This document shows positions 14,862 to 16,331 of a stretch of 30,649 nucleotides of DNA, piece after piece. The stretch is from positions 1 to 30,649 of the forward strand of contig CAZVEM010000010.1 of assembly GCA_964626165.1 (NCBI GenBank), in the 5' to 3' direction. Each line of letters begins with the position of its first letter. The stretch's first letter is position 1. The DNA comes from an uncultured Nannocystaceae bacterium (GTDB lineage Bacteria; Myxococcota_A; Polyangia; Nannocystales; Nannocystaceae). The position numbers and the translations under genes were made by a program. The notes under the pieces were generated by a model that was given only the letters and a program-made list of their open reading frames with translations, searched no databases and had not been told where the DNA came from.

Positions 14862-16331
14862 ATGAACACGTCCAAGCTTCGATATCTGCTCTCTGTACTG
14901 ACGGTGTGCGGTCTAGCGGCCTACTCCGGGCGTGCGCTCGCGAACGGCAACGTCTCGCACCAATGGATCTCGAAGACCGCGGCCGAGAACACGCCTCGCG
15001 GTGGCTCGCTGGCGCCAATCGTCCAAGACCCGGCGCTGGTCAACCAGCTCCACACCGGGACGATGTTTCCCGACTGGGGCTACACGCCCGGCGCGACCAC
15101 CGACCAGCGCAGTGCCGGTGAGGCCTCCCATTGGGAGCCCGTGCAGGAGGCCTATCGTCTTTGGATTGTCGAGAACTACGCGCCGCCTTGGAGCGACGCT
15201 GCGCGACGGCACATCGCCTTCTATATGGGCATGACCTCGCACGGTATGGCGGATCAGACCTATGACGCCATGTTCTTCGAGCGCTCGAGGTTCTACGAGA
15301 ACAAGGACCACAACGACTTCGATCAAGACAGCGACGTGATGTGGGCGGCGACCACCGGACCGGGGACGCCGCCTATGATCTGGCTGCCCGATGATCCAAT
15401 GCTCGGGCTCTATCAAGACGTCGTCGGCGTCACCATCGATGGTGCAGAGATGAAGAGCCAGGTGAATCTGGTCGGCTTTGCGATTGGATTGGTCAATGTG
15501 CTCGCCGCCGATCCGATGGATCTGGCCGACGCCAAGGCGGCCTTCCCCTGGGCGGATGAGCACGACGACGATCTGTCCGTGCCGGGGAATCCGCCGTCGG
15601 AAGCCGTCGCGGTCCAGCGCTACTGGCGAAGCAACTGGGCGCTGATCCACGGAGATCCGTTGCCGCGTCCGGTCTTGATGACGTACCCGCCAGATGGCGG
15701 CACCGAGCACGAGACTCAGTCCGCGAGCATCGAGTCATGGATCTCGGTCGTGTTCGCGCGGGGAATCGACGAAGGACTGCTCGATGCTTCAAGCGTGCAC
15801 CTCACCGATAGTCTCGGTATGGAAGTGCCGACGACGCTGGATCTGTTCTACGGGAATACCTCGCACGTCCTGCACATCAAGCCCAACATCGATTTGATTG
15901 ACGATGAGGTCTACGTCGTCACGATCGATCCCGGAGTGCAGACGATTCACGGCGAGTCGCTCGAGGGTTGGAGTTTTCGCTTCTCCACCGGCGTCGACGC
16001 TCCCATGCCGATGAATGACGACTCATTCTGGGAAGAGCCCGATCCCTACGATGACGGCGGCGACGGTGATGGCGACGGTGACGGCGACGGTGACGGGGAT
16101 GGCGATGGCGACGGGGACGGCGACGGGGACGGCGACGGGGATGGCGACGGGGATGGCGACGGCGACGGCGACGCGACCACGGGCCCTGGGCAGTCTGAGA
16201 GCGAGAGTGGGTGCGCGTGCCGGAGCGCTGGGAGGAGCCGCGCAGGGCAGGGACCCTCGGCTCCGTGGATTCTGGCCGCGCTGAGCCTCGCTGCCCTTGT
16301 CCTCACGCGACGCCGCCGCAGCGTTGTCTGA
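14862..16331 (+). CDS. Secreted zinc-dependent phospholipase C / S1-P1 nuclease-fold protein with Ig-like domain, (GD)n linker and MYXO-CTERM anchor
   Basis: I placed the start at ATG 14862 (MNTSKLRYLLSVLTVCGLAAYSGRALA, a signal peptide). The mature N-terminus SHQWIS... and AFYMGMTSHGMADQTYD align with the W1/H14 and HYLGDxxxxxH zinc sites of Bacillus PLC and P1 nuclease. The region ...SVHLTDSLGMEVP...YVVTIDPGVQTIHGESLEGWSFRFST is a Big_5/SbsA-type Ig-like domain. It is followed by about 29 GD dipeptides and then SGCACRSAG...WILAALSLAALVLTRRRR. Confidence 0.7.
   Translation: MNTSKLRYLLSVLTVCGLAAYSGRALANGNVSHQWISKTAAENTPRGGSLAPIVQDPALVNQLHTGTMFPDWGYTPGATTDQRSAGEASHWEPVQEAYRLWIVENYAPPWSDAARRHIAFYMGMTSHGMADQTYDAMFFERSRFYENKDHNDFDQDSDVMWAATTGPGTPPMIWLPDDPMLGLYQDVVGVTIDGAEMKSQVNLVGFAIGLVNVLAADPMDLADAKAAFPWADEHDDDLSVPGNPPSEAVAVQRYWRSNWALIHGDPLPRPVLMTYPPDGGTEHETQSASIESWISVVFARGIDEGLLDASSVHLTDSLGMEVPTTLDLFYGNTSHVLHIKPNIDLIDDEVYVVTIDPGVQTIHGESLEGWSFRFSTGVDAPMPMNDDSFWEEPDPYDDGGDGDGDGDGDGDGDGDGDGDGDGDGDGDGDGDGDGDGDATTGPGQSESESGCACRSAGRSRAGQGPSAPWILAALSLAALVLTRRRRSVV
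16055..16172 (+). repeat. Hexanucleotide microsatellite (GGCGAC/GGTGAT/GGGGAT)n encoding a (GD)n run of about 29 dipeptides
   Basis: Seen directly in the sequence. The antisense frame gives (SP)n, which explains the spurious ORF 16046..16306(-). Confidence 0.85.

Follow-up and report, generated by a model that had tools for sequence, protein, structure and literature searches.

Glycine-aspartate dipeptide runs as probable disordered tethers in two predicted lipid-anchored proteins of a Nannocystaceae bacterium

Why should two genes within a single stretch of bacterial DNA each carry a long, uninterrupted run of the dipeptide glycine-aspartate? Six-frame translation of the window (the whole stretch of DNA that was analysed, 30,649 nt) revealed only two runs of at least four GD units, both on the + strand: (GD)19 at 16059..16172 (114 nt in units of 6, residues 400-437 of protein 1) and (GD)35 at 26710..26919 (210 nt in units of 6, residues 40-109 of protein 2). 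A sequence-only reading of this DNA had reported two such runs in two genes, and both were confirmed, at positions essentially as it gave them (16055..16172 and 26711..26920), but its counts of about 29 and about 45 units were each some 10 too many; our own unit numbers may be off if the assembly is a short-read one, above all for the 210-nt tract. The alternation of the peptide is perfect in both runs (54 units, zero interruptions), and an unbroken alternation over 38 or 70 residues could not plausibly have arisen by chance. We consider it probable that each (GD)n run is a disordered, strongly negative tether, which connects a folded extracytoplasmic domain to the predicted lipid-anchor cysteine.

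Protein 1 (489 aa; 14862..16331, + strand), defined by its ORF, translation and homology, reads as an exported protein in which a signal peptide precedes a PLC-fold domain and an Ig-like domain, with the GD linker and a MYXO-CTERM signal after them. Its Sec signal peptide (residues 1-27; 14862..14942, + strand), recognized by inspection, has a predicted cleavage site after A-L-A, and residues A25, A27, N28 and G29 are invariant or almost so in 95 homologues (A-x-A followed by N-G, with the cut between them). The layout that the sequence-only reading had drawn around the two runs stands, with one correction: the signal of protein 1 is of the signal-peptidase-I type and is not a lipobox, since Cys16 is not conserved. 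The signal peptide is followed by a domain made up of helices only (residues 28-262; 14943..15647, + strand), whose fold is that of zinc phospholipase C / S1-P1 nuclease, and by an Ig-like beta domain (Big_5; residues 271-375; 15672..15986, + strand), which scores 29.9 bits with Pfam PF13205 (cut-off 23.6) and for which AF2 predicts beta strands at 271-375, in a fold that matches CopC- and SbsC-like folds.

The 74-aa linker of protein 1 (15990..16211, + strand; net charge about -29 by linker statistics) extends from the Ig-like domain to the cysteine of the MYXO-CTERM signal, and (GD)19 ends 13 aa ahead of that cysteine. The signal itself (16203..16328, + strand) consists of an SGCAC motif, a transmembrane helix and an RRRR tail, such that the C-terminus reads S-G-C-A-C ... 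WILAALSLAALVL-T-RRRR-SVV. It matches TIGR03901 over positions 1-34 of the 34 in the model, at the extreme C-terminus, and its 21.0 bits exceed the cut-off of 20 by a narrow margin; moreover, C451, R483 and R485 are almost invariant among protein 1 homologues. Protein 1 thus has the features by which MYXO-CTERM proteins are recognized, namely an HMM score above the cut-off, the order of cysteine, helix and arginine tail, and a Sec signal. The ORFs scanned in the window yielded neither a myxosortase (MrtX) nor a type II secretion system. The AF2 model of protein 1 (mean pLDDT 87.9) has pLDDT values above 95 for residues 30-390, values of 37-57 across 400-467, and a recovery in the C-terminal transmembrane helix (468-486), and on this model the tether is predicted to be disordered.

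Protein 2 (196 aa; 26593..27183, + strand), defined by its ORF and translation, reads as a lipoprotein precursor in which a GD tether links a lipobox signal to an orphan Cys-rich domain. On visual and pattern-based inspection, its signal peptide (26593..26646, + strand) fits the lipobox rule [LVI][ASTVI][GAS]C, reading V-S-RR-LIVTLGLCGLL-T-A-C18, with an SRR start, the lipobox L-T-A-C and the codon of Cys18 at 26644..26646. The predicted lipidated cysteine is followed by a 91-aa tether rich in Ala, Asp and Gly (26647..26919, + strand), whose first units are decayed (GDAGDTA) and whose last are those of the perfect run; (GD)35 begins 21 aa after Cys18 and has a charge of -35. Composition and analogy suggest that this tether is disordered as well. 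Other lipoproteins in the window also have low-complexity segments after the lipobox. The C-terminal domain that follows (87 aa, 10 Cys; 26920..27180, + strand) is an orphan in similarity searches: its sole real match in 5.8 billion clusters and 1.84 billion representatives was itself, and no Pfam or NCBIfam domain was found in it. Two candidate relatives of this domain, P0122 and P0123, were rejected as unrelated repeat proteins.

We considered that the runs might be an artefact, arising either from mis-assembly of a low-complexity stretch or from a genuine gene for (SP)n on the other strand. Minus-strand ORFs do read (SP)n, one of 192 aa across run 2 (26424..27002, - strand) and one of 86 aa opposite gene 1 (16046..16306, - strand), and the 210-nt repeat is longer than a short read. 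Moreover, the public protein collection has neither full-length protein and only a 60-aa C-terminal fragment of protein 2 (P0121), and a check of six alternative starts for the ORFs in the GD and (SP)n frames found none of them there. Automatic gene callers thus seem to have stumbled here. However, both tracts are exact multiples of 6 nt and keep the frame from the signal peptide to the downstream domain, and homology to 140 proteins pins the flanks of gene 1, and with them the coding strand, to the + strand. We judged that the 192-aa ORF is not a gene because the signal peptide and the Cys-rich domain share a frame only on the + strand. Furthermore, the same architecture is found in three E. 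salina isolate genomes and on a 9.5-Mb long-read contig. We therefore regard an artefact as extremely improbable.

The 140 homologues of protein 1 are mostly from Myxococcota and have identities of up to 69%. The distance from the Ig domain to the MYXO-CTERM cysteine, 74 aa here, has a median of 78 aa in 45 homologues with 60-69% identity, in which the linkers are rich in Ser, Thr, Gly and Glu, and a median of 74.5 aa in 14 homologues with 41-46% identity, in which the linkers are of the PGDGDGDP type; Nannocystis orthologues have no GD. Thus, protein 1 homologues conserve the length of the linker (about 75 aa) and not its sequence, and the Gly-Asp composition itself may be dispensable, given that the closest homologues use Ser/Thr/Gly/Glu-rich linkers. 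Orthologous linkers of the same length and of quite different composition are what would be seen if the runs were arbitrary filler, that is, if only a disordered linker of roughly this length were selected and Gly-Asp were simply the product of replication slippage in this lineage, with no special property of importance.

The codon use of the runs bears on this alternative in two ways. In run 2, codons that are rare in the window predominate, with GGA in 20 of the 35 units (13% in the window background; chi-square p = 1.5e-9) and GAT at 60% (35% in the background; p = 0.008), and this is the pattern that an amplified GGAGAT/GGAGAC seed would yield. Perfect higher-order duplications of 35-50 nt are also present in the DNA of the runs, and codon use differs between run 1 and run 2 (p = 4e-4), which argues that the two have separate origins; each of these observations is compatible with filler that arose by slippage. 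However, the 108 codons of the runs include 42 third-base departures from the majority codon and none at the 216 first and second positions, and even a minimum of 7 independent synonymous events gives p ~3e-5 under neutrality. That all 42 codon differences are synonymous suggests a constraint on the peptide and not only on its length. Asp was never replaced by Glu in the 54 units, although one third-base transversion would suffice. In the runs, Gly comes after every Asp, and Asp-Gly is the pairing with the greatest tendency to form succinimide.

The recurrence of the runs in other genomes also speaks against filler. We scanned DNA for (GGNGAY)12, that is, (GD)n of at least 12 units, in one genome per species, and at least 62 of the 109 matches listed came from named Myxococcota genomes, with 11 more from one unclassified MAG with MYXO-CTERM tails, a taxon mix that may reflect scan order. 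Among the matches listed, most were from Nannocystaceae, Enhygromyxa and Polyangia, in which the runs recur many times per genome, and several of the GD-rich genomes are marine by name; no Myxococcus, Corallococcus, Sorangium or Nannocystis name occurred among the Myxococcota matches listed. The runs had been called unusual, and they are rare in general, but this does not describe Enhygromyxa, Nannocystaceae and Polyangia.

Using home-made patterns for the lipobox and MYXO-CTERM calls, and not a trained predictor, we found a lipobox-like Cys shortly upstream of the run in 49 of the 71 assessable ORFs with (GD)n of at least 10 units in Myxococcota-type genomes among the matches listed, compared to 32 of the 238 ORFs of these loci that served as controls (13%; Fisher p = 8e-19). 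Among the matches listed, the median distance from this cysteine to the GD run was 33 aa, and a further 5 of the 71 ORFs had a MYXO-CTERM signal directly downstream of the run. Tether length had a median of 80 aa and an interquartile range of 60-99 among the matches listed (91 in protein 2). An independent case was found in Phytohabitans (Actinomycetota), where (GD)16 directly precedes an LAxTG sortase signal. The proposal that the runs serve as linkers in exported, anchored proteins is thus upheld, both by their location in proteins 1 and 2, where an anchoring signal lies on one side and a folded extracytoplasmic domain on the other, and by the excess of lipobox-like cysteines; among the matches listed, most of the assessable runs adjoin such cysteines, and the runs are not scattered through cytoplasmic proteins. 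Amplification of the same dipeptide, independently, in dozens of unrelated proteins of many genomes and at the same position relative to the anchor is difficult to reconcile with filler, as is the purely synonymous variation, and we regard filler as a minority possibility.

Variation in repeat number, on the other hand, might itself be what is selected, if the runs were contingency loci in which high-frequency mutation within a population gives adaptive, switch-like variation. The DNA is tandemly repeated, and homologous Enhygromyxa lipoproteins have, at the same position, (GD)24, (GD)10-PGT-(GD)13 or (GD)9-P-(GD)7-P-(GD)20. Homologues with 50-66% identity differ in tract length, and thus the expectation that repeat number varies was borne out at the level of homologues, in both length and pattern of interruption. 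Similarly, Ser-Asp regions span 9 to 52 repeats among S. lugdunensis isolates (PMC6533592), but this staphylococcal analogue was stable through 30 subcultures (PMC6533592).

The make-up of the tracts argues against such a switch. A 6-nt unit keeps the frame, and its gain or loss therefore cannot turn the gene on or off and alters only the length of the protein, never its expression. Moreover, the DNA is degenerate, and to call it a near-perfect hexanucleotide repeat is an overstatement: Tandem Repeats Finder reported periods of 12 and 36 with 87% matches for run 1 (16058..16173) and periods of 6, 18 and 24, of which 18 and 24 were best, with 84-87% matches for run 2 (26713..26920). No perfect period-6 tract exceeds 18-23 nt, each run has six different hexamers, and 41 of 52 neighbouring unit pairs are non-identical. 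A perfect tract whose changes would shift frame or spacing, as the term contingency-like implies, is therefore not what we found.

Close relatives that might display polymorphism were not found in the protein and metagenome collections searched, either: by protein searches, HMMER over 1.84 billion representatives, and exact and degenerate tract-flank scans of JGI metagenomes, protein 1 had no homologue closer than 69% identity and protein 2 had no relative at all. The FTHFS of the source lineage (Myxococcota) is likewise at most 64% identical to any other. On this evidence, a contingency locus is very unlikely.

We also considered a role that would depend on the aspartates themselves. The overlapping D-x-D-x-D-G motifs of the runs might bind Ca2+ or Mg2+, in which case metal-dependent stiffening, condensing or cross-linking, for instance to an anionic polysaccharide or a mineral, would be selected rather than spacing as such; such a divalent-cation element is compatible with the tether and would add to it. 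DxDxDG is an established calcium-binding motif and provides a lead. The linker is very densely charged (about -29 over 74 aa in protein 1), there are zero Asp-to-Glu swaps, GD is missing from the Nannocystis orthologues of protein 1, and the runs are concentrated, among the matches listed, in Enhygromyxa, Nannocystaceae and Polyangia, several of them marine by name. However, there was no match to calcium-binding families (Pfam HemolysinCabind is absent at E≤1), an EF-hand-type loop requires an acidic residue at position 12, where (GD)n has Gly, and non-specific cation binding is common to any polyanion. We consider selection for cation binding unlikely.

The tether that we favor has counterparts in known systems, one being the Ser-Asp R region of the staphylococcal Clf/Sdr proteins, in which, as in the runs here, Asp alternates with a second residue over a long stretch, with a functional domain on one side and a C-terminal anchor signal on the other. 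R regions are encoded by degenerate 18-bp DNA repeats with mostly synonymous variation and strain-variable length (PMC3794999, PMC6533592), and that of ClfA is a flexible stalk that projects its domain from the surface (PMC6533592). In contrast to Clf/Sdr, the dipeptide here is Gly-Asp and not Ser-Asp, and the envelope is Gram-negative, with anchoring through a predicted lipidated cysteine (lipobox or MYXO-CTERM) in place of LPXTG-sortase attachment to peptidoglycan. Furthermore, Ser-Asp repeats are protected by SdgA/SdgB glycosylation, and Gly-Asp lacks the hydroxyl that this requires. Both GD runs can be aligned with the SdrC, SdrD and ClfA models of NCBIfam, but through the repeat alone; membership in Clf/Sdr was rejected, as SdrC, SdrD, ClfA and ClfB scored 11-31 bits against cut-offs of about 1,000-2,500, and there is no LPXTG. 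As judged from sequence, the likeness to Clf/Sdr is functional and is not one of family membership.

A second comparison comes from E. coli, in which outer-membrane lipoproteins need disordered N-terminal linkers for Lol sorting, such that length and disorder matter and sequence does not (10.1101/2021.01.05.425367). As in those linkers, described by El Rayes et al., the tether of protein 2 starts right after the (here predicted) lipidated cysteine. In contrast, that study reports neither dipeptide repeats nor polyanions among the E. coli linkers, whereas the runs here are a perfect dipeptide polyanion, and the GD tethers of Myxococcota are long, as their 80-aa median among the matches listed indicates.

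Protein 1 shares its layout with the MYXO-CTERM protein TraA and the GlyGly-CTERM protein VesB, in which a domain (sometimes an Ig fold) is followed by an unstructured linker, a short Cys/Gly motif, a transmembrane helix and a basic tail. In TraA, a disordered region adjoins MYXO-CTERM (PMC11980579), and processing of the tag together with type II secretion leads to surface display (PMC11980579; 10.64898/2026.02.05.703148). The TraA and VesB linkers, which neither paper calls dipeptide repeats, are noted as protease-sensitive release sites (PMC11980579; 10.64898/2026.02.05.703148); a Gly-Asp polymer would probably offer few sites to common endoproteases. Finally, RTX repeats (GGxGxDxUx) are, like the GD runs, rich in Gly and Asp and found in exported proteins, and they are often invoked for Gly-Asp repeats. 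We rejected an RTX beta-roll, as the period is 2 and not 9 and there is no PF00353 match at E≤1; since (GD)n has no hydrophobic position, a beta-roll cannot form.

How, then, might a Gly-Asp tether work? In protein 2, the anchor would be the N-terminal lipobox cysteine, modified via the Lgt/LspA pathway, and in protein 1 it would be the C-terminal MYXO-CTERM cysteine. In either case, the tether would keep the domain off the membrane, with a contour length of about 27-33 nm and a likely coil size of several nm; glycine would prevent structure, while aspartate would keep the tether solvated, self-repelling and repelled by the anionic membrane surface. Such a stalk might also span an S-layer or EPS, as the sequence-only reading proposed. 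The tracts would lengthen and shorten by slipped-strand or unequal-recombination events in blocks of 6-36 nt, and selection would keep the tract in frame and near its present length, with Gly and Asp still alternating. The position of the runs relative to the anchor cysteine, the disorder predicted for the linker of protein 1, the recurrence of the runs, the conservation of length without that of sequence and the restriction of variation to synonymous changes are all consistent with a tether whose cysteine would be lipidated, whose domain would lie at the outer membrane or surface and whose function would be that of a spacer.

The literature searched contained no description of a (GD)n tether, its matches being limited to the dg repeats of fission yeast, insertions in OmpK36 and unrelated strings, and the perfect Gly-Asp polymer is thus a chemically extreme and apparently undescribed class of tether. 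We can also imagine, as an improbable extension, that the acidic tether, which frequently starts with C-x-D-D and continues as (GD)n, marks lipid-anchored proteins for surface display by a code specific to one branch of Myxococcota, probably a marine one, acting both as a sorting or exposure signal and as a polyelectrolyte stalk loaded with Ca2+/Mg2+, its length tuned as repeats are gained and lost. Bacteroidota have an acidic lipoprotein export signal, to which such a code might be likened.

No long-standing question is opened or closed by these findings. Given the (SP)n shadow ORFs and the fragment-only record, such proteins are probably under-annotated. Low-complexity tethers set the distance of a surface enzyme or receptor from the membrane and, in E. 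coli, also whether a lipoprotein reaches the outer membrane. In this lineage, the tether adjoins cysteines of both kinds, N-terminal lipobox and C-terminal MYXO-CTERM, and thus one physical solution seems to serve both anchoring routes; the runs provide a natural series of linker lengths, clean and testable, for lipoprotein display in myxobacteria.

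Six-frame translation revealed exactly two GD runs of at least four units in the window, both on the + strand: (GD)19 at 16059..16172 (run 1) and (GD)35 at 26710..26919 (run 2). The sequence-only reading had placed both runs correctly, and its counts of about 29 and about 45 units were each ten too many. Run 1 lies in gene 1 (14862..16331, +), which encodes a 489-aa protein with a Sec signal peptide, a Big_5 Ig-like domain (residues 271-375), a 74-aa linker that includes the run, and a C-terminal MYXO-CTERM sorting signal (SGCAC, transmembrane helix, RRRR; 21.0 bits with TIGR03901, cut-off 20). 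In the AF2 model of this protein, pLDDT is >95 to about residue 390, 37-57 over residues 400-467, and higher again in the terminal helix. Run 2 lies in gene 2 (26593..27183, +), which encodes a 196-aa protein with a lipoprotein signal (SRR, hydrophobic core, lipobox L-T-A-C18), a 91-aa tether whose final 70 residues are (GD)35, and a Cys-rich C-terminal domain (87 aa, 10 Cys).

In both proteins the run separates an anchor signal from a folded domain, as had been proposed, but the N-terminal signal of protein 1 is no lipobox. We rejected that assignment because Cys16 is not conserved among 95 homologues, unlike the A-x-A|N-G cleavage region of the Sec signal peptide, which is kept in them. The feature common to both proteins is that the run adjoins the Cys expected to bear the predicted lipid anchor: run 2 lies 21 residues downstream of the lipobox Cys, and run 1 lies 13 residues upstream of the MYXO-CTERM Cys, for which lipidation is predicted (PMC11980579). 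After lipidation, the transmembrane helix is cut off by the myxosortase MrtX, and type II secretion carries the protein to the cell surface; in TraA, the model MYXO-CTERM substrate, a disordered region adjoins the tag (PMC11980579).

We consider it likely that the (GD)n run is a disordered polyanionic stalk between a folded extracytoplasmic domain and its lipid anchor, with lipidation, location and spacer effect all inferred. Glycine would block structure formation, and the regularly spaced aspartates would keep the chain solvated and expanded and hold it away from the anionic surface of membrane or LPS. We estimate contour lengths of ~27 nm (protein 1) and ~33 nm (protein 2), with an actual reach of probably several nm. 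The run may aid lipoprotein trafficking as well, a function that disordered linkers have been shown to serve in E. coli (10.1101/2021.01.05.425367). A putative specific role in binding Ca2+ or Mg2+ would be compatible with a stalk, although we regard it as improbable.

Protein 1 has 140 homologues, nearly all from Myxococcota (Nannocystis, Paraliomyxa, MAGs), the closest with 69% identity. Between the Ig-like domain and the MYXO cysteine, the linker measures 74 aa in the window protein (n=1; Gly-Asp, longest GD run 19 units), a median of 78 aa (45-91) in 45 homologues of 60-69% identity (Ser/Thr/Gly/Glu-rich, longest GD run 2 units), a median of 74.5 aa (50-83) in 14 homologues of 41-46% identity (PGDGDGDP type, 5 units), and a median of 18 aa in 14 distant homologues (mixed, 1 unit). 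Linker length and net negative charge are preserved and the sequence is not; we take this as the signature of a spacer, of which the pure GD tract of protein 1 is, judged from these sequences, a lineage-specific form.

We scanned a single genome of each species for (GGNGAY)12 and obtained at least 109 stretches, the taxon mix of which may depend on scan order. Among the matches listed, 62 of 109 came from named Nannocystaceae, Enhygromyxa, Polyangia, Polyangiaceae or Myxococcales genomes, 11 from the unclassified MAG Co_bin.297, the proteins of which have MYXO-CTERM tails, 4 from 'Deltaproteobacteria' or Bdellovibrionales and 32 from other phyla; several genomes gave 5-11 stretches each, so GD-run proteins are numerous per genome. 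In Myxococcota-type loci, we classified 81 ORFs with runs of at least 10 units, by patterns and not trained predictors; 10 are cut N-terminally by the locus end, and 71 are assessable. Among the matches listed, a lipobox-like Cys lies upstream of the run in 49/71 (median 33 aa ahead), compared to 32/238 (13%) control ORFs from the same loci (Fisher p = 8e-19), and a MYXO-CTERM lies immediately downstream in 5 more. Neither signal was found by pattern in the other 17; inspection by eye shows several of these to be lipoproteins missed by the pattern. The suggested association between runs and anchors is supported. In these matches, the tether between the Cys and the end of the last run measures 80 aa at the median (interquartile range 60-99), and a Cys-rich domain often follows (at least 6 Cys within the next 100 aa in 18/43).

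Right behind the predicted lipidated Cys, 19/49 of the GD-tether lipoproteins in these Myxococcota-type loci (within L001-L109, the loci of the scan) have C-x-D-D, compared to 2/34 lipobox ORFs serving as controls in the same loci. The motif could direct sorting or export; in protein 2, the sequence is C-A-R-E instead. Outside Myxococcota the matches listed are mixed, some being non-genic frames or microsatellite-like DNA. Loci from Alphaproteobacteria, Vicinamibacteria and Bacteroidota (L002, L061, L092, L089) have GD tracts of 88-124 units with no obvious lipobox adjoining, and in L092 the entire stop-to-stop ORF is (GD)124, without flanking coding context.

The runs had been described as near-perfect hexanucleotide repeats. 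The peptide repeat is indeed perfect, but the DNA is no clean microsatellite: Tandem Repeats Finder put the matches at 84-87% and favoured periods of 12/36 in run 1 and 18/24 in run 2, and perfect tracts reach 18-23 nt at period 6 and 35-50 nt at periods 12 to 36. Each run contains six different hexamers, and neighbouring units are unlike in 41/52 pairs. Departures from the majority codon number 42, every one synonymous and at the third position, and 0/216 first and second positions vary; at the edges of run 2 are decayed units (GDAGDTA in front, V-D behind). If mutations are random, synonymous-only differences have p ~3e-5 even with as few as 7 independent events, the minimum, which argues that either the Gly-Asp alternation itself is constrained or interrupted tracts are rapidly lost. 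That the run is arbitrary slippage filler, in which length alone matters, is a rival reading that we consider possible but doubtful.

Run 1 uses GGC/GGG/GGT with GAC, and run 2 uses GGA in 20/35 and GAT in 21/35 units (difference between runs, p = 4e-4), the latter departing strongly from the Gly and Asp codon usage of the window (p = 1.5e-9 and 0.008). An independent origin of the two runs follows from this unlike codon use, and run 2 looks like a GGAGAT/GGAGAC seed amplified via 18-24-nt block duplications. Homologous Enhygromyxa lipoproteins have (GD)24, (GD)10-PGT-(GD)13 or (GD)9-P-(GD)7-P-(GD)20 at the same site; thus, tract length and interruptions shift over evolutionary time. The further suggestion of contingency-like variation misdescribes the tracts, since gain or loss of an in-frame 6-nt unit cannot turn expression on or off and the staphylococcal Ser-Asp analogue, polymorphic among isolates, is stable through 30 subcultures (PMC6533592). 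We consider both a contingency locus and an artefact unlikely. The protein and metagenome collections searched contain no strain-level relatives.

Among 5.8 billion clusters and 1.84 billion representatives, the Cys-rich domain of protein 2 has no relatives, its sole real match being its own 60-aa C-terminal fragment (P0121). Antisense (SP)n shadow ORFs lie opposite run 1 (16046..16306, -) and run 2 (26424..27002, -). The public protein collection contains neither shadow ORF and neither protein at full length; since only the P0121 fragment is present, automatic annotation probably mis-calls GD-repeat genes, on which gene callers appear to break.

Other features of the window were also noted. 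At 19426..22221 (+) lies a 931-aa protein homologous to the eukaryotic major vault protein (Pfam MVP_shoulder 3e-18 and Vault_3); it matches the rat MVP structures 4hl8 and 4v60 over residues 336-876 (phmmer, E=3e-23). Its neighbours on either side are an ion channel of the Castor/Pollux type (17348..19264) and an RRM-domain protein (22303..22857, -); bacterial MVP homologues have been described previously (bioRxiv 10.1101/872010). A 310-aa ORF (12192..13124, -) has two MYXO-CTERM-like tails (Cys, hydrophobic stretch, RRRR(R)), with a signal-peptide-like stretch ahead of the second, as though two small MYXO-CTERM genes were joined in frame; no NCBIfam model reached threshold. The ORF at 7427..9517 (+) combines an N-terminal FHA domain, ~350 aa of Pro/Ala-rich repeats (unit APSPFGAP; TRF periods 30, 42 and 84; repeats at 8264..8536) and, at the C-terminus, a multi-pass membrane region. 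Three ORFs begin with a lipoprotein-like signal that ends in Cys: in 29575..30288 (+) and 3003..4640 (-) a low-complexity tether follows straight after (Lys/Ala/Asp/Glu/Gly-rich or Thr/Ser/Pro-rich), and in 24732..25490 (-) a short Cys-containing stretch comes first, with a low-complexity Ser/Asp/Glu/Lys-rich segment further along. Low-complexity tethers thus appear to be common in the organism, (GD)35 being the extreme case.

Among known systems, the Ser-Asp R region of the Clf/Sdr adhesins comes closest: it, too, is an X-Asp dipeptide repeat between domain and anchor signal, its coding DNA consists of degenerate 18-bp repeats, and it has been described as a flexible stalk whose length varies. 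Since nothing but the repeat aligns, we rejected membership of proteins 1 and 2 in that family; RTX repeats were ruled out by the lack of a Pfam match. In Phytohabitans maris (L006, NZ_JAVHUY010000001.1), ORF residues 480-564 comprise (GD)16, GGGGGS-LASTG, a hydrophobic stretch and RRRR; by its sequence, this Gly-Asp stalk immediately ahead of an LAxTG sortase signal is a clear, independent actinomycete parallel to the staphylococcal stalks. The closest Gram-negative concepts are the disordered linkers of E. coli lipoproteins (10.1101/2021.01.05.425367) and unstructured segments beside MYXO-CTERM and GlyGly-CTERM tags (PMC11980579; 10.64898/2026.02.05.703148). We found no description of Gly-Asp repeat tethers from bacteria in the literature searched, which covers a minority of subscription journals. 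Thus, the tether principle is ordinary and its chemistry unusual, and its use is both clade-specific and recurrent.
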